DNA of 48,651 nucleotides from Candidatus Eiseniibacteriota bacterium (GTDB lineage: Bacteria; Eisenbacteria; RBG-16-71-46; SZUA-252). Where the stretch lies: assembly GCA_041484545.1 (NCBI GenBank), contig JBGPHU010000001.1:1-48651 (forward strand). The letters run 5' to 3'. Shown here piece by piece: positions 15,529 to 47,125 of the stretch. The position numbers and the translations under genes were made by a program. The notes beneath the pieces were generated by a model. It saw nothing but the letters and a program-made list of their open reading frames with translations. It searched no databases and was not told the DNA's origin. Within the stretch, counting starts at the first letter, position 1, and each line of letters opens with the position of its first letter.

Positions 15529-16287
15529 ATGCCCGAACCCCGATGCGCCTATTTTGTCGCCGACGCCCATCTGGGCCAGGGCCCCCCCGACTCGAATCGT
15601 TCCCGAGAGCGGGACCTTCTCCGACTCTTCGACACCGTGCTCGCCGAGCGGGCCGCGCTCTACGTTGCCGGGGACCTGTTCGACTTCTGGTTCGAGTACG
15701 GCCATACGGTTCCCAAGCGATACGTCGGAATCTTGCACAAGCTCGGGGAGCTTCGCCGCGCGGGCCTCTCGGTTACATATGTCGGCGGAAATCACGACTT
15801 CTGGATCGGCGATTATCTGCGCCGTGAGCTGGACGTCACGTTCACCGACACCCCCCTCACCCTCGCCATCCAGGGCCGGAACATCCTCCTGGCGCACGGA
15901 GACGGTCTGGGCCCAGGGGACCACGGCTACAAATTGCTGAAGCGCGTTCTCCGGAACGGCCTCGCACGCGGACTCTTCCGCTGGATCCACCCCGATATCG
16001 GGATTCCGCTCGCCACCATGATCTCCCTCACGAGCCGCCACCACGCCCCGCGGGCGCGCCGCAGCGAGGAATGGCTCTTCCAGACTCTGGGCAGGCCCGT
16101 GTTCCGCCAGGGTTACGACGCCCTCGTGCTCGCCCACTTCCACGTGCCGGTGCACCGTCGCGAGAGCGACGGGGAGCTTCTGGTGCTCGGGGATTGGATC
16201 GAGCGGCGGACCTACGCGCGGCTGGAAGGTGGCGTCTTCCGGCTCGAGGATTTCCGGGACGGCCCCGGCTCTAGAGGCGGGCGTTGA
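15529..16287 (+). CDS. lpxH: UDP-2,3-diacylglucosamine hydrolase (calcineurin-like metallophosphoesterase)
   Basis: 252 aa with FVADAHLG, GDLFDFWFEY, GGNHDFW and LAHGDG motifs. Confidence 0.85.
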   Translation: MPEPRCAYFVADAHLGQGPPDSNRSRERDLLRLFDTVLAERAALYVAGDLFDFWFEYGHTVPKRYVGILHKLGELRRAGLSVTYVGGNHDFWIGDYLRRELDVTFTDTPLTLAIQGRNILLAHGDGLGPGDHGYKLLKRVLRNGLARGLFRWIHPDIGIPLATMISLTSRHHAPRARRSEEWLFQTLGRPVFRQGYDALVLAHFHVPVHRRESDGELLVLGDWIERRTYARLEGGVFRLEDFRDGPGSRGGR

Positions 16288-17188
16288 CCGATACGAAATG
16301 GGTGGTGCCGAGGTCCGAGGAGAACGGCACGAGAGCGTAGTCGAAGCTGAAGCGGCGCTGGATCAGCCCCACCCCGAAGCTCATCTTCTCGTCGTCGTAG
16401 CCGAACTTGGCGCCCGCCCTGAGCGCGATGCGCTCTTTGTACTCGAACTCGCCTCCGACGTTTACCCGCGTATCGTCCCCGCGCGCATTCCGCACCTCCG
16501 CGCTCAGGACCCCTTTGCCCGAGAGGCTCGGGATCGCTCGCGTCAGCGCGGCGCCGGCACGGATGGTCCGGGGAAGCGGGAAGGGCACGGCTCGGAACGT
16601 GGCGTCTCCGCCGAGATTCTGGAGCGCCGCCCCGAGCGACAGGCCGGAGTGACCGAGCGCGACCCGGCCGCCCAGATCGAAGGCCACCGCCGTCGCGTTT
16701 TCCTGGTCGATCATCTCGCGAATGAACTTCACCGCGATTCCGCCCGTCGCCTGCCCCGCGAAGCGGTGGGCGAACGCGCCCGTGATCGCCAGGTCGTTGA
16801 ATCCGAAGTGCCCGGTGAGATTCCCCACGTCGTCCCGGCTCTCAAGCTCCGAAGTGTAGAAGCCCGAGATCCCGAAACCGAGCGTCCCGGCCCCGATGGA
16901 GCGCGAGACGGCCGCGAATTCCTGGCGGAAGTCCTGGATCCATTCGTTGTGCATGACCGTCACCTGGGACCCTTCGGCTCCGCCGAGGCCGGCCGGATTC
17001 CAGTAGACCGCGGTCGGATCGTTGGCGAGCGCGACGTACGCGCTGCCCATGCCCATGGGGCGCGCCCCGACGCCCAGCTTCAAGAAGGCGAAGCCGGCCT
17101 CGCCGGCCGCCGCGCGCGCGCTCCGCGGCGCCTGGGACGACGCGAGAAGTACGACCGCAAGTGCGAGAACAATCGAAAACCGATGCAT
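16271..17188 (-). CDS. porV: PorV/PorQ-family outer-membrane beta-barrel protein (T9SS-associated)
   Basis: Real part of the fused track ORF 16271..18049. MHRFSIVLALAVVLLASS signal, FLKLGVGARPMGMGSAYVALANDPTAVYWNPAGLG hallmark, alternating beta-strand pattern. An alternative ATG at 17212 overlaps the upstream stop as ATGA. Confidence 0.75.
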   Translation of the reverse strand: MHRFSIVLALAVVLLASSQAPRSARAAAGEAGFAFLKLGVGARPMGMGSAYVALANDPTAVYWNPAGLGGAEGSQVTVMHNEWIQDFRQEFAAVSRSIGAGTLGFGISGFYTSELESRDDVGNLTGHFGFNDLAITGAFAHRFAGQATGGIAVKFIREMIDQENATAVAFDLGGRVALGHSGLSLGAALQNLGGDATFRAVPFPLPRTIRAGAALTRAIPSLSGKGVLSAEVRNARGDDTRVNVGGEFEYKERIALRAGAKFGYDDEKMSFGVGLIQRRFSFDYALVPFSSDLGTTHFVSVNARL

Positions 17189-17208
17189 GGGCTTCTCCTC
17201 GAATGGAG

Positions 17209-20200
17209 TCATCGGACCACGGCCAGTTTGGTGAACGTGACCTCGACGCCGCGGTCCGATTCTACCTCGACGCGGCAAACGTATACGCCGCTCGCCTGAG
17301 CGGAATGGTTCCACCGGATGGCGTGCTCGGCCGATCCCAGCAGGTCGGCGGCTCCCGTCGCGGGCTCCGCCACCACCTGCCCCGCCGTGTCGAGCACCTT
17401 GAGCCGCACCGCGCGGGCGTTCCCGGCGAGGCGGTAATGGATGAAGGAATCGCCGGAATGGGACGGGTTCGGGAAGGCATACACCTGGGAGAGGATGGAG
17501 GTCCCGGCCGAGGGCCCCGCGGGCCCCGAGGGTATGAACCCGGCGCGGGTGGGGCCGTAGCGGTACTGGGACCAGGCGACCGTCCCGGGCGCGGCTGGAA
17601 TCGACGTCGTGCGAACGTCGATCTGGACGCGCGGATCGGAGGGGACAGGGTCGAAGGTCTCGACCCACTCTAGAATTCCGTCGTTGTCGAGATCGAGGAG
17701 CATCGGCGGAGAGCCGGAGCCCGTGCTGCCCAGCTCGCCGAAGCCCGGGATCTTTTTTCCGTCGGCCCGGAATGCCGGCCGCGTCCCGTCCGGCAGGATG
17801 GGAATCACGTCCAGGATGCCGTCCTGGTCCACGTCCGCTATGAGCGGGGGCCAGAAGGCGGTCGAGTCCGCGGGCGCCAGCGGGTCCCGGGCGTCGATGG
17901 GGAACCCGCTCCTCGGCGAGCCGCTGTAATGAGCCGCGGCCACGCGGCAGCCGCCGCCGGCGTGGATGACCTCGGGGAAGCCGTCGTGCTCCAGGTCGCC
18001 GATCGACACCTCGGACAGCGCCCCCTGCGTGAGCGGCGCGGTGGGCCATCCGGGCAATTCCCGCGCGGTGATGTATTGCGAGGGAAGGTCTCCCCCGATG
18101 TGCGCCGCGAAGTTGAATTCGAATGCGTGGAGCGCGCCGTCCCGATCGGAAACCACGACCTCGGGTTTTCCGTCCCGGTTCAGATCCGCGAGGATCGGGG
18201 CGGAGAAGGCTCCCGGCTGGACCACGAAGGAGCCGTACTCGCTCGGGTCCGTTGGAAGGAGCGGATCGTTGAAGATCTCCCAGTTGGCGATGAAGAGCCC
18301 GCTGAACGTGTTCTCCCCGATGGTTCCCCGGGCACTCGCGATGACCACCTCGGGCAGCCCGTCGCCGTCCAGGTCCGCCGCCGCGGCGGGACCGGTGGTC
18401 GCTCCTCCGACAGGAATCAAGTAGGTAGAGATCGTGCCCGCCAGGTCGCGATACGCGGTGAGGAGGGAGCCTCCGCTTGCATTGGCCGAACGTCCACGGA
18501 TGATTTCCATCGCCCCGTCGCCGTCCAGGTCCGCCAGGATCGGCTGTCCGCCGCCGAGGGCGAAGTTGCCGGGCACGAGGACGCCCAGCGTCGCCGGGTT
18601 GGAATCTCCATCTTGAACCTCGGTTCCGTCCGCATGCATGGCGTAGATCGTTCCGTCCACCGTCTGGATGATGATCTCAGGGATTCCATCGCCGTCGATG
18701 TCGCCGGCGCACGGGGTCGCGTTCACGCCGGATGCCGTCGTGAGGAACACGTCCCGGGTCGCGGGATTGGAGTCACGATCGAGCAAGTCGTTCCCGTTGG
18801 GCTCGAGGACATAGACCGCGCCGGTGTTGTTGAGGCGCTGCACCGGCACGATCAGCTCGAGGAGCCCGTCCCCGTTCAGGTCCACGGCGAGCGGCGGTAC
18901 GCCCCCATTCCGCGAGCGCCCTCCGATCACCACGGGCCAGCCCGGTTTCTGCCGGTCGAAGGCGAGATTGAAGGTCATGAGGCTGTCGGCCGCGCCGATG
19001 TTCGTGACGGAGATGCCGGTGGCGACATGTCCGTACGCCTCCGTCGAGGGGTTCGTGGTGGGCGTCCAGTGGTCGCGCCATCCCGCCCGGAACACGTCGT
19101 CCGGGCTCCCACCGTTGAATCCGGTGGGAGGATCGTCCAGATCCTGGATGCCGTTCGCCTCGACCAGATCGATCGCCTTGCGATCCCGGTCCCCGTTCAC
19201 GATGTTGAGCGTGAGTCCCGAGGCGAGCTTCGATTCGTCCACGTGAAAGGCGAGGAGCCCGGAGCCGGTCCCGCTGCCTGGAAGGAAGTAGTCGAACTCC
19301 GCGCCGAGATAGCTATCCGTGTAGAAATCGAACGAGCCGTCGCCGTTCGCGTCGTCGAAATCGAACTTGCCGTTCCCGTTCAGGTCCTGCTCGCGGTTCT
19401 CGAGGAGAAAATATTCGCTCTGGGTGACCGGGATCTCGAGGAGCCTCGGATTCGCTCCCACGGTCCGCTCGACCTGCGAGAGCGCGACGGCCTGGCCGTT
19501 CGTGGCCCGCGCGGGAGTCAGCACCCCGAGGAACGCCTTGCTCCAGGCGCTCGGCGCGCACGGAACGAATCCGTTCGCGTTCCAGACTCCGGTCGCCATG
19601 ATGTCCCATGCGCCGAGCCCCTGCGAATAGCCGTTCACCCCCGCGTCGGTGTCGTACAAATCGGGCAATCCGAGCTGATGGCCGAACTCGTGGCAGGTGA
19701 CTCCGGTCATCCCGAAGACATAGCCGTCCTGGGTCTCGGACTCGGGTAGCTCCACGGCTTCCTTCACGCGGAAGAAGTTCCCGGGAGTGATGGCGTCGTT
19801 CGTCTTGATCCCGACCGCTCCGGTCGAATCCGGGAGTATGGCCTTCAAATCTTGTTGTGTGATGAACGCGGACCAGACCTGATCGCGGCTGTTGTCCAGA
19901 ACGTCCGCCTCCTGCCCCTGCCCCGCGTGGAAGATCACGATGCTCTGGTAGGGACGGAAGTCGACCGTGGAGTCGGCGAGCGCCACCATGTCGCGAACCA
20001 TGAAGACGACGCGCTCCTGGAACCGGTCATCGTTCCCGTAATAGGACATCGGATGCGGAAGGGTGAACACCGAATCCCACAGCGTGGGCTGGAGCGTCAC
20101 CGCCCCTTCCGTGACCTGGTTCCAGTACTGATTCATGAAGAACAGAAGGCGGTTGTAGTAGGCGGTCGAAGAATCGATGGGGGTGTCGCTGAAGGCCACC

Positions 20201-20472
20201 CTCACCGCGAGAACGCGCAGTGTCCCTTGCGCCTCGAGGGTGATGCGCTCGCCCCGAGCCGGCAGGAGCGCGAAATCGGGCCTGAGGCGCGAGGTGGAGA
20301 AGCCCTCTCTAGGCCCGACGGCACCGTGCTTCCCAGGGACGGGCGGCACGGCCGAAGCCGTTTGCGTAAGCAGTGTTAGGGAGATTGCCAGGAGGAACGC
20401 GGACGTCCGACTGGGCCGGGGCGTACCGAATCGCACCTGAGAAGTGTATCCGCGATCGCACGCCCCGGTCAA
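17209..20472 (-). CDS. Secreted M6 (immune inhibitor A-like) metalloprotease with FG-GAP/VCBS repeats and a C-terminal T9SS/FlgD-Ig-type sorting domain
   Basis: 1087 aa. GVTCHEFGHQLGLPDLYD is the M6 HExxH motif. At least seven Ca-binding FG-GAP loops (DLNGDGLLE, DIDGDGIPE, DLDGDGAME, DLDGDGLPE, DLNRDGKPE, DVDQDGILD, DLDNDGILE). C-terminus FPNPSHSGDSFIHYRL...ASGVYVCRVEV....FTKLAVVR. The start is TTG 20472 or GTG 20436. Confidence 0.85.
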   Translation of the reverse strand: MTGACDRGYTSQVRFGTPRPSRTSAFLLAISLTLLTQTASAVPPVPGKHGAVGPREGFSTSRLRPDFALLPARGERITLEAQGTLRVLAVRVAFSDTPIDSSTAYYNRLLFFMNQYWNQVTEGAVTLQPTLWDSVFTLPHPMSYYGNDDRFQERVVFMVRDMVALADSTVDFRPYQSIVIFHAGQGQEADVLDNSRDQVWSAFITQQDLKAILPDSTGAVGIKTNDAITPGNFFRVKEAVELPESETQDGYVFGMTGVTCHEFGHQLGLPDLYDTDAGVNGYSQGLGAWDIMATGVWNANGFVPCAPSAWSKAFLGVLTPARATNGQAVALSQVERTVGANPRLLEIPVTQSEYFLLENREQDLNGNGKFDFDDANGDGSFDFYTDSYLGAEFDYFLPGSGTGSGLLAFHVDESKLASGLTLNIVNGDRDRKAIDLVEANGIQDLDDPPTGFNGGSPDDVFRAGWRDHWTPTTNPSTEAYGHVATGISVTNIGAADSLMTFNLAFDRQKPGWPVVIGGRSRNGGVPPLAVDLNGDGLLELIVPVQRLNNTGAVYVLEPNGNDLLDRDSNPATRDVFLTTASGVNATPCAGDIDGDGIPEIIIQTVDGTIYAMHADGTEVQDGDSNPATLGVLVPGNFALGGGQPILADLDGDGAMEIIRGRSANASGGSLLTAYRDLAGTISTYLIPVGGATTGPAAAADLDGDGLPEVVIASARGTIGENTFSGLFIANWEIFNDPLLPTDPSEYGSFVVQPGAFSAPILADLNRDGKPEVVVSDRDGALHAFEFNFAAHIGGDLPSQYITARELPGWPTAPLTQGALSEVSIGDLEHDGFPEVIHAGGGCRVAAAHYSGSPRSGFPIDARDPLAPADSTAFWPPLIADVDQDGILDVIPILPDGTRPAFRADGKKIPGFGELGSTGSGSPPMLLDLDNDGILEWVETFDPVPSDPRVQIDVRTTSIPAAPGTVAWSQYRYGPTRAGFIPSGPAGPSAGTSILSQVYAFPNPSHSGDSFIHYRLAGNARAVRLKVLDTAGQVVAEPATGAADLLGSAEHAIRWNHSAQASGVYVCRVEVESDRGVEVTFTKLAVVR

Positions 20473-20512: not shown

Positions 20513-22051
20513 TCACCGCGATCGGCCACGGCCCTGATCACCGCGGTCGCCATGGTCCCCGCGGTCGCGGTTTCCGTCGTCCTGCCTCGCGCGATCCCCC
20601 TGGCCCTTGTTGTCCCCTTGGCTCTTGTCATCCTTTTGGCTCTTATCGTCACTGTGGCTCTTGTCATCACTGTTGCGATTGCCGCCACCACGCTCCTCGC
20701 GCGGCGGTGCGGGCCGTTCCCGGCCCCCACGGTCCCCCTGCGGCGGCTGCCCGCGATCGGGCTGAGGCTGGCGCTCCCGGCGGTCCTGCGGCCGCTGCCC
20801 GCGGTCCTGCGGCTGCCCGCGGTCCTGCGGCTGCCCGCGGTCCCGGGCGTTGCCTCCCTGGTTTTCGGGCGCGCGACGCTCGCCCCGCTGCCACCATCCT
20901 CGATTCGCGGGAGGATTCGGCCTATCGCCGCGATCGCGCCATCCGCGGTCCGGCGCCGGCACGGGACGCGCGCGGTCCCGGTTCCCCTGGTCCCCGGGCT
21001 GGATCACTCGATTCCGGTTCTCCCTGAGTCTCAAAATCTCGTCGCGTCCCCTCCAGATGCGTCCCTCGCGGTAGCGGCGAAGGTCACGGAATTCGGGCCT
21101 CGCGGACCGCGCCTGAGGCGGGCGCTCCCGGCGATTCCGGATGTCGCGCTCGGGGAGAAAGCGCGTGCGCAGCACGGCCCGGCCGTCAAGGGAGGACCAC
21201 TGCGATTTCCACTGGCGGTAGCGGGTCGGCGCCCCAGGACGCACGCGATAGATGTACCGCGGCCGCACCGTGCCGAACCGGATCGGCGCGTAGTGCGCCC
21301 ACGTCGCATCGACGCGGATCTCGAACACCGAGCAGGCGTTGACGTACGGATCGAAATAGAACGGATGATAGTGGCAGTCGGCGCAGACGTACCGCGGGTA
21401 GTCGACCCGCCGGTCGATGTAGAAATAGGTCTCGTTGGTCGCGACCCGGTCCTCGCGTCCCGGCGGGACGATCCGCCTTACGATCCGGTCGATCCCCACG
21501 TAGGGATCCCCCGCGATCTGTCCGGAGTTCGTGTCGTCGCCCTCGTCGTCCTCGAGATCGGGACGTCCGCCGTCCGCGCGGTCCGCCGAGAGATACCAGG
21601 GAAGATTCTGGAACGGGAACGGGCTCGCCACCGCGACGACGTACTCGATGCCCGCGGGCCCGTCGGCGACCAGATCGTAGGGGTCGCTTCGAGAAGGGAT
21701 CCGGTACGCGCGTCCCCCCTCGACGAGCGGCGGATCCTCGGGGCCGTAGGGATAGACGAGATGGATGTACCCGTCGGTATCGACATTGAACACGAGCACG
21801 TAGCTGTCCGTGGAGGAGCGGAAATAGACCCGCATGCTTTCCCCGGGCCGGTAGATGCCGCCCTCCTCCTTATTGACCCAGACATCCACGTCGGGCCGGC
21901 CCCCATGGACAATCCTTTGAGCCGGGTAAACGTCCGCCGCCGGATCATCCGCGGCGGCGGGCAACGGGACATGCTCGGCCGCGACGGCCGGAACGGCCGC
22001 CGCGACGAGGGTCATCCAAGCCACCGCGAATAGAGCCCGCGATCGTTTCAT
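20513..22051 (-). CDS. Exported DUF4384-domain protein with a long Arg/Asp/Gly/Gln-rich disordered tail
   Basis: 512 aa with a signal peptide. DUF4384-like core reads VWVNKEEGGIYRPGESMRVYFRSSTDSYVLVFNVDTDGYIHLVYP. A Cys-containing middle (YVCADCHYHPFYFDPYVNAC) is followed by about 215 aa of RDRG/QPQDRG/DDKS repeats. Its ATG overlaps the upstream stop as ATGA. Confidence 0.7.
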   Translation of the reverse strand: MKRSRALFAVAWMTLVAAAVPAVAAEHVPLPAAADDPAADVYPAQRIVHGGRPDVDVWVNKEEGGIYRPGESMRVYFRSSTDSYVLVFNVDTDGYIHLVYPYGPEDPPLVEGGRAYRIPSRSDPYDLVADGPAGIEYVVAVASPFPFQNLPWYLSADRADGGRPDLEDDEGDDTNSGQIAGDPYVGIDRIVRRIVPPGREDRVATNETYFYIDRRVDYPRYVCADCHYHPFYFDPYVNACSVFEIRVDATWAHYAPIRFGTVRPRYIYRVRPGAPTRYRQWKSQWSSLDGRAVLRTRFLPERDIRNRRERPPQARSARPEFRDLRRYREGRIWRGRDEILRLRENRNRVIQPGDQGNRDRARPVPAPDRGWRDRGDRPNPPANRGWWQRGERRAPENQGGNARDRGQPQDRGQPQDRGQRPQDRRERQPQPDRGQPPQGDRGGRERPAPPREERGGGNRNSDDKSHSDDKSQKDDKSQGDNKGQGDRARQDDGNRDRGDHGDRGDQGRGRSR

Positions 22052-22827
22052 CAGGGCACCCGCCTCGTGAGTTCGGGGTTATTGGCGTCGATCTGGTACG
22101 CCCAGTCCATGACCATCGCCGAGCCGTCGCGCGATTTCACCTCAAACTTCGCGTAGTGGTTGTCGCGCGTGAGAACGATGTAGCTGTGTCCGACGATCGC
22201 TTCCACCAGACCGTCCGCCGACCAGCCCGATGGCGGCGCGAAATCGACGTCGCGGAGCGCCACGAATCCCGCGTCCTGGATCTTCGTATTCAGGGTATCG
22301 GGAACGTAGACCAGGTAGTGACCCCCTTGCGAGCCGTAATAAACGTCGGTCTGCGCGTTGAGGGAAGATCGGCGGACCTGCGCCGAGAAATCCCATCCGC
22401 TCACGCTGTCGACGGCGAAGGTGTTCGTGAGCGAAACACCGAATCCCTCGGGCCGCGGCGTGTCGAACACGTTTTCGAAACTCAGCTCAGCGCTCTCCTG
22501 TCCCGCGAGGTCCACGGCCGCGACAGCGTAGAAGTAGGTGTTCCCGTTCGCGACGCTCGTATCGATGAAGCTCGTCGTGGTGCTGGATCCGACCAGAGTG
22601 AAGGTGCCGGTCGCCGCCGAATTTCCATAAATCTTGTAGTAGGCGATGTCGCTTTCCTGGTTCGCGCGCCAGTAGACGGTGACCCGGCCGTCGCCCGTGA
22701 CGCTGTACACGCCGTCCACCGTGTGCGGCGGGCGGTCGCTCGTAGCGTTGGTGACTTTGTCGCCATGGCAGCCGAGCACCAGGAATGCGGTCGAGAGGGC
22801 GAGCACTTTGGTCAGGTTCCGGATCAC
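22051..22827 (-). CDS. Lipoprotein with a fibronectin type III-like domain
   Basis: 258 aa. Lipobox LVLGC. FN3-like VTVYWRANQESDIAYYKIYGNS...GNTYFYAVAAVDLAGQES. GTG start preceded by GAAGGAGGT. Confidence 0.7.
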   Translation of the reverse strand: MIRNLTKVLALSTAFLVLGCHGDKVTNATSDRPPHTVDGVYSVTGDGRVTVYWRANQESDIAYYKIYGNSAATGTFTLVGSSTTTSFIDTSVANGNTYFYAVAAVDLAGQESAELSFENVFDTPRPEGFGVSLTNTFAVDSVSGWDFSAQVRRSSLNAQTDVYYGSQGGHYLVYVPDTLNTKIQDAGFVALRDVDFAPPSGWSADGLVEAIVGHSYIVLTRDNHYAKFEVKSRDGSAMVMDWAYQIDANNPELTRRVP

Positions 22828-22883: not shown

Positions 22884-22899
22884 CGCAAGCGACATGCCA
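22884..22899 (-). promoter_or_regulatory. Sigma-54 (-24/-12) promoter-like element in front of the FN3-DUF4384-M6-PorV operon
   Basis: The minus strand reads TGGCAT-GTCGC-TTGCG with canonical spacing. The -12 GC lies about 58 nt upstream of the GTG start at 22827. Confidence 0.65.
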
Positions 22900-23075
22900 C
22901 GCTGCGCGCGATCCAGTTCATCGCTGTAATCGATGTGACATTTGGAGGTTATGGAGACTCGGACCGTGGAGGCGGACCTCTGCCGACGTAGGGTATCGGG
23001 GACACTGTGACGGGGAGGAAACAGAGGATGGGCCGACAGTTTCGTCGCCTTCGGGCACAAGTCGCGTTCGAGCAC

Positions 23076-23115
23076 AAAAAAACGCGGGAGCATATGCTCG
23101 CGCACACGCTCCCGC
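23076..23115 (-). terminator. Strong intrinsic terminator (minus strand)
   Basis: The minus strand reads UUUUUUU-GCGGGAGC-(16 nt)-GCUCCCGC-G-UUUUUUU. This is an 8-bp GC-rich stem followed by U7. Confidence 0.75.
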
Positions 23116-23249
23116 AAAAAAATGAGCCCCGGCCCAACCAGCTCTATTGGGTTACGGCTACTTCGATCAAGGCCGGTGCTCGATCGGGCAGCTAACCCAC
23201 CACCACGCTGGCTAAACCCGCAGGCTCCTTGGAGGTCCCCCCCTCCGGT
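23076..23249 (-). ncRNA. Candidate sigma-54-dependent small RNA (about 175 nt), family not recognised
   Basis: Bounded by the sigma-54-like promoter at 23260-23275 and the terminator at 23076-23115. No RBS-preceded ORF. Hairpins seen: CCGGAGG..CCUCCAAGG, CGAUCGA-N9-UUGAUCG, CCCAA-N9-UUGGG. U-rich stretch before the terminator. Confidence 0.45.
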
Positions 23250-23259
23250 CACATGTCAT

Positions 23260-23275
23260 TGCAGTCCGCATGCCA
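23260..23275 (-). promoter_or_regulatory. Sigma-54 (-24/-12) promoter-like element downstream of the activator gene
   Basis: The minus strand reads TGGCAT-GCGGA-CTGCA, with GG and GC at canonical spacing. Lies 211 nt after the activator stop, flanked upstream by an AT-rich island. Confidence 0.5.
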
Positions 23276-23485
23276 AGATATTGGACTACATGACACTCTG
23301 AGAAATATAGCTGTAGCAGCTTGCAATTAAGGCTGTTGCAATGAAGCACCAGACGTCGATCGGCACCGGCCGCGGGTCGGATTATCAAAGAATATTACAG
23401 GTCATTTAATAGTAGTTTGGGTCAAGGTGGCGATATCGATGCAGGAGAGTAAGTTAGTGCAGTAAAGAAGCTTTATATCAAAAAC

Positions 23486-26400
23486 TTAAGACTTTTGCCG
23501 GATTCCGAGGCGGCGATCAAGCTGGTAGATCTTGATCTTCTGGAGCAGGGTTGGATAGCTGAGGGAAAGTTCGCGGGCTGCCTTTAGCTTGTTCCAGTTG
23601 CTGCGCTCGAGAGCCTGGCCGATGAGCTTCCGCTCGACCTTGGCCACCTCGACCCTGAGAGTCGCCGGTGAATTGCCGTTCGTCTCTTCCTCGGCCCGGA
23701 GAAGCTCGCGCGGCACCAGCCGGAGCGAGAGAGGCTCTCCTTCGTTTGCGAGCACTACCATCCGCTTCACAACCTTCTCCAGCTCGCGCACGTTGCCGCG
23801 CCAGGGAAGCTCGGCGAAAAGGCGCAGCATCTCGGGCTCCACGCCGCTGATCTGTTTCCCCATCTCGGAGGCGAATCTCCTGCTGTAATGGTCGACGAGA
23901 AGCGGAATGTCCTCGGGGCGGTCGCGAAGCGGCGGCACCCGGAAGCAGATATCGTTGAGCCGGTAGTAGAGATCCTCGAGGAACTCTCCCTTGGCGATCC
24001 TGGCCTTCAAGTTCACGTTGGTCGCGCAGAGCACCCTCACGTCCACCTTCGTGGACTTGTTCCCGCCCACGGGACGAACCTCGCGGTTGTCCAGCACTTG
24101 CAAAAGCTTCCCCTGGATCGTGATGGTCGTCTTGTCCACCTCGTCCAGGAAGAGGGTCCCGCCGTTCGCCTCGACGAAGAGGCCGGACTTTTCGCGCACG
24201 GCGCCGGTGAAGGCGCCCTGCACGTGGCCGAAAAGCTCGGATTCGAGGAGCGGCTCGGGAAGCGCCGCGCAGTTGACCTGGATCAAGGGCTTCGTCGCGC
24301 GATTGCTCGACGCGTGGATCGCCCTGGCCAGAAGCCCCTTGCCGCTCCCGGTTTCTCCCTCGATCAGGATCGTCGCGTCGCTGGGTCCAACCCGCTCGAG
24401 GAGCGAGAGAATCTCCAAGAGCTCGCGGCTGCGGGTCACGATGCCGTGATCGTTGGCGGTCCCGAGCAGGCGACCGCGGAGCGACATGTTCTCCCTGGCC
24501 AGCTCGCGACGCTGCGACTCCAGAATTGCGACCGCGACGTAGTTGCTGAGCACCGCGATCAGGTTCACCTCGCGCTGCTTGAACGTGCCGAGCGGTCCCT
24601 CGGCCTGCCGGTCCAGGTATAGGAACCCGGGCTGTCCCGATGGAAGCGAGAGCGGCATGATTACGAGGCTCGTCCTGGGACCGAGGGCGTGCGCCGCCGG
24701 GAAGTCGCGGAACCTGGGATCGACCCCCGCGCGGCTCGCCACGACGGGGCCGGACGCCAGCCGGTCCGCGCCGACGCGCGCCAGAAGCTCGCGAAGGAGA
24801 TCCTGAGCCACGCGCATCGAGATTCCCGTCGCCGCGAGGACGGTGGCGCTGCCGTCCGGGGAGGGCGCCACGACACAGCCGCGCGTCGCGCCCGACCGGC
24901 GCACCAGAAGGCTCAGGATTTCCTGCACCGAGCCTTCCCCATTTTCCACGCGCAGCACGCGGCGGATCTCGTCGAAGGCGGCGAATTCGTTGCTCTGCGC
25001 CGTGGTGCCTTCGATGAGACCCTGCTCGACTTCGCGCCGGAACGCCTCGATCTCGCGCTCGAGCGCGGGCTCCTGGTGGTCGGCGAAGAGCGACGCCGCG
25101 TGGTCCAGGTGGATGACCGCCTCGTCCACCAGCCCGCGGCACATCTCGCTTCGCGCCAGCTCGAGAAGCGCGCCGCCCGTCAACTCCGGCAGCCCGAAGC
25201 TCTCGAAGCCGGCCGCCGCGCGGCGGAGGTAGCTCACCGACTCGTCGAGGATCGCGCGCGACTTGCCGCGACGGGCGCGCTTGCGCCACGTGAGGCCGGC
25301 CGAGAAGCAGAGACGCGCCAGCTCGTAGCGCTTGCCGATCTGGTTCAGGATCTCGCTCGCCTGATCGAGGTAGGTGCGGCCCTGATCCAGATCGCCATCC
25401 TCGGCGCGGGCGAGCCCGATGAGCTTGAGCGAGCACGCTTCCTCGAGACGATCGCCGAGGCGCCGCGCGATCACCAGGGCGCGCTCCGCGATCCGCACGG
25501 CGGGCTCCAGCTCGAGCGCAGCCAGGTGCACTTCCCCGAGCCGGCGCAGCAGCTCTACCGTGAGGTCCGACTCGGGCGCAACCTGGTCGGCCATGACGAG
25601 CGCGGCCTCGAATTCCTTGCGCGCCTCGGCGATCGAGCCGCGGTCCAGGTGGTAGTCGCCCAGGGCCTCGCGGGCCAGGATCGTCTCGCGCGGATATCCG
25701 CGCTCGACCGCGAGCGCGAGGGTTTCGTGGATCAGCTCCTCGGCCTGCGCCCAATCGCGGCGTTTGCGCTTGAGATTGCCCAGGCAGCAGAGGGCGCGCG
25801 CGCGGCCCGCCGCGTAGCCCACCTCGGTGTACATCTGGAGCCCGCGGCGGTAGTGCTCTTCCGCCAGATCCCAATCGCCCATCTTGTCGTGCACGATGCC
25901 GATGTTGTGCAGGTAGGTCGCCGCGTCATGAAAGTGTCCGGAGCGCTCGCTGATCCGGAGCGCCTGCTCCAGGAACCGCAGCGCTTCCTTGAACCGGCAT
26001 TGGTTCTTGTGGAGAAGGCCGAGGTTGTTATACGCCGCGGCCATGCCGCTCTGGTAGTCGGCGCGGCGGTAGGTCGCGATCGCGCTCTCGAAGTGCTCCC
26101 GCGCCGAATTCCACTCGCCCGTGCGCAGCCCGATGGCGCCGAGGCACATCTCGGTGTGACCCAGGTCCAGGTTGAGCGTGGTGTCGCGAAGGAGGCGGTA
26201 GGCAAGCGAAGCGGACTTGTGCGCGGCGCGATAGCGTCCGCGCTCGAAGAGCAGGATGCCGAGCCGCGAGGAGAGCCGCCCGACCTGCTCCCGAGTGACG
26301 TGCGGGCGGAGCCTCCGGTGGAGATCATGGAGGGCTTCGACCGCTTCGTTCAGATCTCCGCGGTGCCTTAGGCACTCGACGATCTGCGTTCCGGTCTTGA

Positions 26401-26626
26401 GGAGCGTTTCCTGGCTGGCTTCGTCGCCGCGACGGCCCTCGATTTCCAGGGCTCGGCGATAGTACTCGAGCGCTACCGCGAAGTTGTCCGCGGCGAAGTA
26501 GAGGTCGCCGAGCTCCTGAGCCTTGTGGTCTCCGTTCGATGCCGCCTTGTCACGCGGCTGGGACGGGGCGCCCCCAAGAGCTTCGTTGGGATAGCTCGGT
26601 CGGTCTTTTGGTACAAATCCTTCCAT
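23486..26626 (-). CDS. Sigma-54-dependent transcriptional activator with TPR array + GAF + AAA+ + Fis-type HTH and no receiver domain
   Basis: 1046 aa. The N-terminal ~550 aa form a TPR-like helical repeat array (AAYNNLGLLHKNQCRFKEALRFLEQAL etc). GAF-like middle. AAA+ motifs GETGSGKGLLARAIH and ESELFGHVQGAFTGA (GAFTGA loop), FLDEV, RELEKV. C-terminal HTH LSLSYPTLLQKIKIY. Confidence 0.92.
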   Translation of the reverse strand: MEGFVPKDRPSYPNEALGGAPSQPRDKAASNGDHKAQELGDLYFAADNFAVALEYYRRALEIEGRRGDEASQETLLKTGTQIVECLRHRGDLNEAVEALHDLHRRLRPHVTREQVGRLSSRLGILLFERGRYRAAHKSASLAYRLLRDTTLNLDLGHTEMCLGAIGLRTGEWNSAREHFESAIATYRRADYQSGMAAAYNNLGLLHKNQCRFKEALRFLEQALRISERSGHFHDAATYLHNIGIVHDKMGDWDLAEEHYRRGLQMYTEVGYAAGRARALCCLGNLKRKRRDWAQAEELIHETLALAVERGYPRETILAREALGDYHLDRGSIAEARKEFEAALVMADQVAPESDLTVELLRRLGEVHLAALELEPAVRIAERALVIARRLGDRLEEACSLKLIGLARAEDGDLDQGRTYLDQASEILNQIGKRYELARLCFSAGLTWRKRARRGKSRAILDESVSYLRRAAAGFESFGLPELTGGALLELARSEMCRGLVDEAVIHLDHAASLFADHQEPALEREIEAFRREVEQGLIEGTTAQSNEFAAFDEIRRVLRVENGEGSVQEILSLLVRRSGATRGCVVAPSPDGSATVLAATGISMRVAQDLLRELLARVGADRLASGPVVASRAGVDPRFRDFPAAHALGPRTSLVIMPLSLPSGQPGFLYLDRQAEGPLGTFKQREVNLIAVLSNYVAVAILESQRRELARENMSLRGRLLGTANDHGIVTRSRELLEILSLLERVGPSDATILIEGETGSGKGLLARAIHASSNRATKPLIQVNCAALPEPLLESELFGHVQGAFTGAVREKSGLFVEANGGTLFLDEVDKTTITIQGKLLQVLDNREVRPVGGNKSTKVDVRVLCATNVNLKARIAKGEFLEDLYYRLNDICFRVPPLRDRPEDIPLLVDHYSRRFASEMGKQISGVEPEMLRLFAELPWRGNVRELEKVVKRMVVLANEGEPLSLRLVPRELLRAEEETNGNSPATLRVEVAKVERKLIGQALERSNWNKLKAARELSLSYPTLLQKIKIYQLDRRLGIRQKS

Positions 26627-26680
26627 GCCGGCCCTCGACTACCGTTTCGACGTCGTCCTGAGCGGCGATCCGGACTTCGA

Positions 26681-38765: not shown

Positions 38766-38842
<77 letters not shown>

Positions 38843-46555: not shown

Positions 46556-46571
46556 TGGCATGAGCGTTGCT
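46556..46571 (+). promoter_or_regulatory. Sigma-54 (-24/-12) promoter-like element upstream of the single-module paralog
   Basis: TGGCAT-GAGCG-TTGCT, a near-consensus match. The -12 GC is 70 nt upstream of the ATG at 46640. Confidence 0.65.
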
Positions 46572-46639: not shown

Positions 46640-47125
46640 ATGAGCCGCATTTCTCTCTGGATCGCGTTTCTCGTGACGGCGCTTGCGCTCGTGTCGCCGG
46701 CCTCGAGGGCGAGCGCGCGCACAAGTGTGTCGATCGACCTGCATATCGGAGATGCGTACCGCGGGCCTCGGCTGATGTTCCAGCACGAGCCGGACGTCGT
46801 GGTCGTCCCGGGAACGAGGGTCTACTACGTTCGTGATTACGACTACGACATCTACCGCTACGGCAGCTTCTGGTACTACAACTACGATGGCGGCTGGTAT
46901 CGCGCCCGCAGGTACAACGGTCCGTTCACGTATGTCGGCTATCGCTCCGTTCCCAGCGCGGTGACCTACGTTCCAACGAGGTATCGCAGACATTGGCGCG
47001 ATGCCGGCGAAGGGCGCGCATACGGCCGTGACAACGGACGCGGAAACGACAACGGACGCGGAAACGACTACGGGCGCGGAAACGACAACGGACGCGGCCA
47101 CGGCAACAAGCACGGAGGCAGGTGA
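46640..47125 (+). CDS. Secreted single-module paralog of the Tyr/Trp/Arg/Asp-rich repeat protein, with a (GRGNDN)n tail
   Basis: 161 aa with a signal peptide. SIDLHIGDAYRGPRLMF...RVYYVRDYDYDIYRYGSFWYYNYDGGWYRARRYNGPFTYVGYRSVP..VTYVPTRYRRHW aligns with the modules of 44856..46310. Tail GRDNGRGNDNGRGNDYGRGNDNGRGHG is encoded by about four 18-nt repeats (about 47030-47100). SD AGGAGG. Confidence 0.85.
   Translation: MSRISLWIAFLVTALALVSPASRASARTSVSIDLHIGDAYRGPRLMFQHEPDVVVVPGTRVYYVRDYDYDIYRYGSFWYYNYDGGWYRARRYNGPFTYVGYRSVPSAVTYVPTRYRRHWRDAGEGRAYGRDNGRGNDNGRGNDYGRGNDNGRGHGNKHGGR

Follow-up and report, generated by a model that had tools for sequence, protein, structure and literature searches.

What is encoded in the space between a sigma-54 activator gene and the operon that follows it? 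The locus that raises this question lies on the minus strand of a 48,651-nucleotide (nt) stretch of DNA from a Candidatus Eiseniibacteriota bacterium (contig JBGPHU010000001.1 of assembly GCA_041484545.1), the whole of which is called the window here. An initial annotation of this DNA proposed that a non-coding RNA is encoded between the activator and the operon and transcribed from a sigma-54 promoter of its own, and the comparative analysis presented below strongly supports this proposal: the promoter is fixed, conservation sets in at the promoter, helices covary, no open reading frame (ORF) is conserved, and Rfam contains no match. At the sequence level, comparison of the window with its relatives establishes a conserved sigma-54 promoter, an invariant 5′ hairpin, a covarying rod, and a terminator, which together form a non-coding element linked to the activator gene. 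We conclude, with a probability of roughly 0.7, that 23275-23116 (minus strand) is a gene in its own right, encoding a structured non-coding RNA of ∼134 nt that would be driven by sigma-54 as an output of the activator and would act in trans.

Relatives of this element were collected through the product of the first operon gene, a 258-amino acid (aa) Fn3-like putative lipoprotein (22051-22827, minus strand), which has >1000 relatives, the named ones being from Candidatus Eisenbacteria. Alignment of this protein was used to fetch 80 genomic loci, which were oriented on its gene; because the loci were picked by the protein, their sampling is independent of the RNA. With 23290-23060 (minus strand) as the query, nhmmer found the element 5′ of this gene in 14 loci (E values from 1e-44 to 1e-14), plus one truncated copy, and at least ∼20 further copies are present in metagenomes; all of the relatives are metagenome-assembled genomes, and the organism of the window is likewise known only from such assemblies. 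The adjacent protein in the nhmmer-positive loci is just 57-81% identical to that of the window. The matches span the region from the TGGCA box to CCGGGGCUCA and the U run, with a mean column identity of 83% in the element alignment, and the sequences flanking them are unalignable. A covariance model of the RNA part (R1) gave scores of 135-164 bits for the relatives and hit the window once, and E-values from covariance models are to be read as rough.

The alignments also contain evidence for a conserved structure. RNAalifold analysis of 15 sequences predicted 39 base pairs, 3 of them inside the promoter, and 13 had compensatory changes. In a model-based alignment of 36 sequences that included metagenome copies, 98.3% of the cells were paired and 15 of 36 pairs had changes on both sides, values that were reached by none of 500 shuffles; when the partners were slid by 1-3 columns, pairing was 28-49% and there were 0-4 compensatory pairs. 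This larger alignment was fitted to the model and leans to the structure for that reason, and the MAFFT-based RNAalifold result agrees with it. The rod covaries, for example, at GCCAGC/GCUGGC, which is replaced by GUCAGC/GCUGAC or by GACAGC/GCUGUC in other sequences. The comparison of orthologous regions, which had been suggested as a check on the proposed RNA gene, thus found the -24/-12 element and the structure conserved with compensatory changes and a small ORF not conserved.

The promoter of the RNA gene, TGGCAT-GCGGA-CTGCA (TGGCATGCGGACTGCA, 23260-23275, minus strand), has its GG at -24 and its GC at -12 and begins 211 nt downstream of the stop codon of the activator gene (TAA, 23488-23486), exactly as first described. 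Sequences of the form TGGCAYN5YTGCW occur twice in the 48.6-kb window, compared with 0.02 occurrences expected from shuffled sequences. The motif TGGCAY-N5-NTGC is kept in all 14 complete homologues, and in the window the promoter is found 13-15 nt 5′ of the hairpin, as it is in 29 of 30 hairpin-bearing genome loci; the exception, L044, has TCGCT as a deviant -12 box.

Given the position of the C of the -12 GC (23261) and the usual geometry of sigma-54 promoters, the RNA is predicted to start at ∼23249 (± 2), 3 bases 5′ of the hairpin, and its conserved part (23116-23249, minus strand) would end within a run of seven U residues (U7). The first element of this RNA is the hairpin GGAGG-GGGGGA-CCUCC (23231-23246), which is invariant throughout the class of RNAs represented in the window (class 1), being identical in 35 of 35 distinct sequences. 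When mapped onto the window, the consensus structure then forms a rod-like body (23124-23227, minus strand) that consists of a closing helix, GAGCCU/GGGCUC (23227-23222 with 23129-23124), a helix of 23218-23207 with 23142-23131, a 2-bp helix of 23198-23197 with 23151-23150, a helix of 23192-23188 with 23161-23157, and an apical hairpin (23184-23178 with 23173-23166) that has the invariant loop bases CACCGGC. The 181-nt segment has a predicted folding energy of -94.6 kcal/mol (z = -4.95 compared with dinucleotide-preserving shuffles). Among three hairpins that the initial annotation had recognized, GGAGG/CCUCC and GAUCGAG/CUUGAUC are in the consensus, and CCCAA/UUGGG, which is not conserved, was rejected because its bases belong to other, covarying helices. 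Two further structures were considered and set aside: a local terminator hairpin, GAGCUGG...CCGGGGCUC, in place of the long-range rod, since covariation favors the rod (the hairpin itself uses invariant bases only, so covariation can't test it), and a kink-turn in the central internal loop, which was inconsistent between sequences when the alignment was inspected by eye.

The U7 run directly 3′ of the closing helix (23116-23122, minus strand) has the features of a conserved intrinsic-terminator tail. The sequence GGGGCUCA(A)U5-9 is found in 13 of the 14 complete genome homologues (the U run is interrupted in L009), and 23122-23116 was flagged as terminator-like by a consensus scan. As a sequence feature, this GC-rich stem with its U tail has the form of the Hfq-type sRNA 3′ module, which calls for six or more terminal U residues. 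The strong terminator originally placed at 23122-23076 is real in that its hairpin and both U7 runs exist, but it is not the conserved end of the RNA, which is at the first U run. The second hairpin, GCGGGAGC...GCUCCCGC with its own U7 (23076-23116, minus strand; 15 pairs in 23116-23083), is lineage-specific: a terminator-like hairpin is present at the matching place in only 12 of 34 class-1 loci, and the sequences of these hairpins are mutually unrelated. It is possible that this second hairpin yields a 174-nt isoform on read-through of the first terminator or serves as a back-up stop.

Whether the RNA belongs with the activator or with the operon can be asked from the arrangement of genes in the relatives. 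By tblastn analysis, all genome loci with the RNA have a full-length orthologue of the activator, whose end is about 200-450 nt 5′ of the RNA promoter. A metagenome scan for the promoter and hairpin yielded at least 120 loci; as these loci were chosen by promoter and hairpin, they are not independent evidence for those two features, and they are valid for analysis of linkage and of the structure of the body. Among the matches listed, the 3′ end of the activator gene is located 202-446 nt upstream in 85 of the 88 metagenome loci whose upstream sequence was long enough, with split alignments in the remaining 3, and the Fn3-like gene is downstream in 72 of 79. Four genome loci (L008, L003, L039, and L065) have unrelated genes intervening, and there the distance to the Fn3-like gene is greater by 3-6 kb. 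Because the RNA stays with the activator despite these inserted genes, we conclude that it is tied to the activator gene and not to the operon. The insert of ∼3.7 kb that separates the RNA from the operon in L008 (2222-6000) carries a gene for a response-regulator receiver protein as well as an opposite-strand gene whose product has a histidine-kinase-like ATPase domain, and in L003 a gap of ∼6 kb is found at the equivalent place.

The operon has a sigma-54 promoter of its own. As the initial annotation stated, the sequence TGGCATGTCGCTTGCG is present at 22884-22899 (minus strand), 57 nt 5′ of the GTG start codon of the Fn3-like gene. A strict TGGCAY-N5-NTGC motif lies within ∼260 nt 5′ of the orthologous Fn3-like gene in 60 of the 80 loci, which come from several FCB-group phyla, including WOR-3, Zixibacteria, and Ignavibacteria; in several Zixibacteria and Ignavibacteria loci there is a match to the C-terminal AAA+/helix-turn-helix (HTH) part of the activator only, ending close 5′ of the gene. 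None of the WOR-3, Zixibacteria, and Ignavibacteria-type loci among these 80 contains the hairpin module. From the widespread operon promoter and the lack of the hairpin in these loci, it looks like the operon is an old sigma-54 unit and the RNA gene is an insertion specific to Eisenbacteria.

A candidate enhancer was found upstream of the operon promoter. The inverted repeat TGT-N12-ACA (23006-23023, minus strand), at -124 from this promoter in the window, occurs at -115 to -134 in 16 of 16 class-1-type genome loci and in the window, and in all but two of these 17 sequences its position is -123 to -126; in most distant loci it is found at about -145. The region upstream of the RNA promoter contains other elements. 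As had been noted, this region is an AT-rich island, with a GC content of 0.38-0.50 across 23250-23550 compared with ∼0.62 in the flanks. One of them, a candidate enhancer or architectural-protein site, is an AT-rich block just 3′ of the activator stop codon (23459-23481, minus strand) that spans about -204 to -185 relative to the RNA promoter. In relatives this block is the inverted repeat CTATWAA-N4-6-TTWATAG, whose half-sites are fixed at -201 to -205 and -188 to -193 in class-1 loci, and similar sites are present at -178 to -193 in distant loci; the copy in the window, GATATAAAG...TTTACTG, is degenerate. A second AT-rich element, CTATTAA (23406-23412, minus strand), is at -137 from the RNA promoter (about -138 across relatives), and CTAT[TC]AA is present at -127 to -139 in 8 of 15 class-1 sequences scanned, the window included. 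We also observed that the AT-rich elements hold fixed distances (about -204, -190, and -138) to the RNA promoter even in diverged genomes.

Several other features reported in this island are present in the window and are not conserved. These are the AGCTG palindrome and the ATTGCAA direct repeats, which are 8 nt apart and not 9. The reported match to the consensus of integration host factor (IHF) at 23476-23488 is real and has no second occurrence in the window (shuffled sequences average 0.12 matches, and 11 of 100 contain at least one); it is at -213 from the RNA promoter, beside the activator stop codon, and overlaps the 23459-23481 block. The IHF consensus, WATCAANNNNTTR, is found in just 2 of 31 loci, at differing positions, and the possibility of an IHF site or an IHF-assisted promoter was dropped for this reason.

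The AT-rich elements may be a candidate enhancer (upstream activating sequence) for the RNA promoter, one that by its sequence differs from the TGT-N12-ACA of the operon. An enhancer common to both promoters was rejected, as TGT-N12-ACA is specific to the operon promoter. The initial annotation had further suggested a single activator behind the RNA and the operon alike, and the motif evidence does not support this: TGT-N12-ACA is a feature of the operon promoter and the AT-rich elements are at the RNA promoter. Since the two promoters have different conserved upstream elements, a single activator for both is possible, though without support from a shared motif.

Taken together, these features suggest how the RNA gene might operate. 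RNA polymerase with sigma-54 would initiate at ∼23249 when an enhancer-binding protein is active; the neighboring activator is the likeliest candidate for this protein and would probably act via the AT-rich elements at about -204/-190 and -138. The RNA would then work in trans as the riboregulatory output of the activator, as Pxr, CrcZ, and Qrr do. We weakly infer that it would bind a protein or the ribosome rather than pair by a short seed, a mode that is favored because nearly the whole RNA is conserved in sequence and structure and because the sole module present phylum-wide is a 5′ hairpin that resembles a Shine-Dalgarno:anti-Shine-Dalgarno helix with a GGA-containing, G-rich loop.

The nucleotides around the activator translation start (26626-26650, minus strand, and the orthologous starts) are themselves conserved, the sequence being GAGGGCCGGnAUGGA in the clade of the window and GAGGGUUCGAAAaGUGCA in the clade with the large RNA, and this conservation at the nucleotide level suggests translational control. 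The invariant loop sequence CCGGCC of the RNA is complementary to the conserved ribosome-binding region of the activator, GAGGGCCGGnAUG. Feedback pairing with the activator mRNA was nevertheless dropped as unsupported, because the pairing energies do not surpass those of shuffled and non-cognate controls.

A number of observations speak against an independent RNA that is made and acts as described above. We infer the start and ends of the RNA, as well as its dependence on rpoN and on the activator, from sequence. Only 2 of 31 loci have TGT-N12-ACA upstream of the RNA promoter, a chance-level frequency that bears on which activator serves this promoter. The search for a target gave none: CCGGCC pairs with the activator start region, GAGGGCCGG, no more strongly than with shuffled versions (z from -2.0 to +0.3), and when the RNA classes were compared in a matrix with their cognate and with non-cognate start regions, the diagonal carried no signal. 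The 5′ hairpin and the closing helix never vary; as they are invariant, covariation can't test their pairing. Multiple loop-exposed GGA motifs of the kind found in small RNAs (sRNAs) that titrate CsrA/RsmA were not found in the class-1 alignments: the conserved GGA motifs of the RNA are one in the loop of the 5′ hairpin and one within its stem, and AAGGAGCC of the window is not conserved. Lastly, one variant of the module lacks the U run and runs into a protein gene, from which it follows that the module can also serve as a 5′ leader.

This variant leads to the alternative that survives best, namely that the RNA is a cis-acting leader or attenuator in which the rod and U run are a terminator regulated by a protein or ligand, with transcription continuing downstream. 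It has a promoter, hairpin, and rod and is found in L039 (2612-4281), L065 (1700-3200), L105, L132, L172, L184, and L189, where a gene for a winged-helix and AAA ATPase protein begins within ∼60 nt and is followed by a gene for a CAAX (Rce1-like) protease. The same orientation of the RNA and the operon fits a leader, as does a reading of the alignment in which the 3′ strand GGGGCUC pairs with either the 5′ GAGCC or a nearby GAGCU to give alternative folds. However, in the class of the window the first ORF is separated from the RNA by a sigma-54 promoter and a candidate enhancer that belong to the operon, an arrangement that is not the one of a riboswitch or attenuator leader, and this promoter is conserved far beyond Eisenbacteria. 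In addition, the RNA remains beside the activator when genes are inserted, a second terminator has been gained in one third of the relatives, which indicates insulation and not read-through, and no riboswitch or leader family in Rfam matches. We consider a leader unlikely on these grounds.

A somewhat less probable explanation is that the RNA is the 3′ untranslated region of the activator mRNA, made by read-through and processing, and that the promoter-like sequence is unused. Read-through from the activator gene is plausible, because only a weak hairpin separates the two: the sole terminator candidate between the activator stop codon and the RNA is a 5-bp hairpin at 23321-23309. There is also precedent for such an origin, since CrcZ too arises by processing of a cbrB-crcZ read-through transcript (PMC5113210). 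The position of the -24/-12 element argues otherwise, as it is at a fixed distance from the hairpin in homologues while the ∼200 nt from the stop codon to the promoter are mostly unalignable; unused sequence would not show such conservation. Read-through might well contribute to the RNA alongside the promoter, which is what happens for CrcZ.

We regard action at the level of DNA, with the inverted repeats and promoter as protein-binding or decoy sites and no functional RNA, as very improbable. The 5′ hairpin corresponds to an invariant palindrome, GGAGG-N6-CCTCC, just past the start site and could be an operator. Compensatory changes were, however, found at 15 helix positions, including G-U pairs that are meaningful for one RNA strand only; the 5′ hairpin has a loop of 5-7 nt depending on the lineage, which fits an RNA loop better than a dimer-binding site; and a U run follows the closing helix.

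A small protein is refuted by the comparative data to the point of being a negligible prospect: a GTG-initiated frame of 139 codons does begin at 23252 in the window, but in relatives it is absent or closed after 16-20 codons, start codons are not conserved, homologues differ by 1-2 nt indels, no ribosome-binding site precedes the frame, no Pfam match was obtained, and comparison of homologous loci found no ORF common to them. The sole ATG-initiated ORF is, as originally noted, one of 15 codons that starts (23259) upstream of the expected RNA start at ∼23249.

The independent RNA gene that we favor was also compared with known RNAs. The view that it matches no RNA family was upheld by a search of Rfam 15, in which the RNA, whether from the window or from 20 related loci, had no match at gathering thresholds; relaxing E to 10 added chance hits only, the best being Giardia U6 (18.8 bits compared with a gathering threshold of 100, E = 0.28). 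A literature search found no paper that combines "Eisenbacteria" and "sigma-54", and a looser search with RNA terms returned no work on Eisenbacteria among its top ten matches. The RNA is a new family, absent from described RNA families, and probably of the functional kind that is known from Pxr, CrcZ, and Qrr.

Qrr with LuxO and GlmY with GlrR are sRNAs that depend on sigma-54 and an activator, are encoded beside the activator gene, and form the post-transcriptional arm of signaling; their genes are divergent from, or upstream of, those of their activators. The Qrr RNAs are Hfq-dependent and pair through a conserved single-stranded seed. No covariance-model match links Qrr or GlmY to the RNA described here. 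A close arrangement is that of pxr of Myxococcus xanthus, which lies downstream of the sigma-54 regulator gene nla19 with a 262-nt spacer and a predicted sigma-54 promoter and encodes a 108-nt RNA (PMC5568312). In both cases the RNA is on the same strand directly 3′ of an enhancer-binding-protein gene (spacer of 262 nt for Pxr and 211 nt here), has a predicted sigma-54 promoter, is ∼110-130 nt long with several stem-loops, and has a layout that is conserved across the clade (PMC5568312). The two differ in that they come from different phyla and have no sequence or structure kinship that could be found (no Rfam match), in that the present activator, a protein with TPR and GAF domains, is not of the response-regulator type, and in that the present RNA is one long rod with a 5′ hairpin whereas Pxr has three separate stem-loops. 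Pxr also has a known phenotype, whereas the RNA of the window is known from its sequence.

The CrcZ and CrcY RNAs of Pseudomonas are likewise encoded immediately after an activator gene, have their own RpoN-dependent promoter, and can be reached by read-through; crcZ is downstream of cbrB, with a promoter that depends on RpoN and CbrB, and is also expressed via cbrB-crcZ read-through and processing (PMC5113210). CrcZ titrates a protein (Hfq/Crc), which is the mode favored for the RNA described here (PMC5113210). In contrast to this RNA, which is without a repeated motif, CrcZ is ∼400 nt long with repeated A-rich motifs, and the upstream elements found here are only candidate sites for the neighboring activator.

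The promoter, the 13-15-nt spacing, and the 5′ hairpin with a G-rich loop of 5-7 nt are found in 30 genome loci and the window, one per locus. These features and the place after the activator gene are constant, and the bodies of the RNAs vary by lineage. In more distant Eisenbacteria, R1 gave weak plus-strand hits at the matching relative position. The commonest form (class 2) was recognized by its motifs in at least 66 loci, and in the 32 of these in which both ends were placed it is 308-429 nt long, with a median of ∼350 nt (for example, L018:5339-5746, L021:5349-5762, and L038:5337-5717). It has a domain closed by CUGGGCUAGCCGG/CCGGCUAGCCUGG and a 3′ domain of GACACCGG...CAYUGGGGGAUGU...CCGGUGUC that leads into a U run, and it contains a second GGGGGAU motif; RNAalifold predicted 48 pairs, 13 of them compensatory, and class 2 has no match in Rfam. 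Class 2 shares with the RNA of the window the sigma-54 promoter and its spacing, the 5′ hairpin, and the site between activator and operon, whereas its body is different and much longer. The class-1 model R1 gives only weak scores on class 2 (13-27 bits), which, from our reading of the sequences, may be owed to the shared 5′ hairpin. As to possible homology between the class-1 and class-2 bodies, inspection by eye gave just the short words CUAGCC and GCACCG in common. Short-rod forms are present in L020 and L044.

Tentatively, the RNA of the window could be the smallest of a phylum-wide set of sigma-54-transcribed structured RNAs that share the promoter and 5′ hairpin and in which the bodies have been swapped or expanded, with the hairpin as a handle for a protein or the ribosome; we find this doubtful. 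If it is true, they would constitute a new class, that of large ribonucleoprotein or decoy RNAs under sigma-54 control, as opposed to ordinary seed-pairing sRNAs, and feedback to the activator or to translation is one possibility.

Eisenbacteria are widespread soil bacteria that are uncultured, and we know of nothing reported on gene regulation in this group. The locus offers a defined regulatory module, composed of a TPR-GAF activator, a conserved RNA with a testable structure, and an ancient sigma-54-controlled cell-surface operon that is found across FCB-group phyla. It extends to a distant phylum the layout of Pxr and CrcZ, in which an activator gene is followed by a sigma-54-dependent sRNA, and adds a new RNA family with good covariation support whose invariant 5′ hairpin is a handle for finding the partner of the RNA.

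The gene adjoining the RNA (23486-26626, minus strand) encodes an enhancer-binding protein of 1046 aa with TPR, GAF, sigma-54-interaction (AAA+, Sigma54_activat), and HTH_8 domains in Pfam. Its AAA+ sigma-54-interaction domain contains the GAFTGA loop, and Walker A (GETGSGK) and Walker B (DEV) motifs are also present.

Downstream of the RNA, the Fn3-like gene is followed in the operon by genes for a DUF4384 protein (20513-22051, minus strand) and an M6-like peptidase with FG-GAP repeats (17209-20472, minus strand). The peptidase resembles the NCBIfam family "T9SS-dependent M6-like inactivated metalloprotease", with a score below the family cut-off, and the ORF after it (region 16271-20472, minus strand) has a weak match to UPF0164. 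This resemblance and the UPF0164 match are hints that the operon products are cell-surface or secreted proteins.

Elsewhere in the window, a tRNA gene (38766-38839, plus strand) is the sole Rfam match. A third consensus sigma-54 promoter, TGGCATGAGCGTTGCT, was found at 46556-46571 (plus strand), 68 nt 5′ of a 161-aa ORF (46640-47125) whose product has a hydrophobic N-terminus and no Pfam match.

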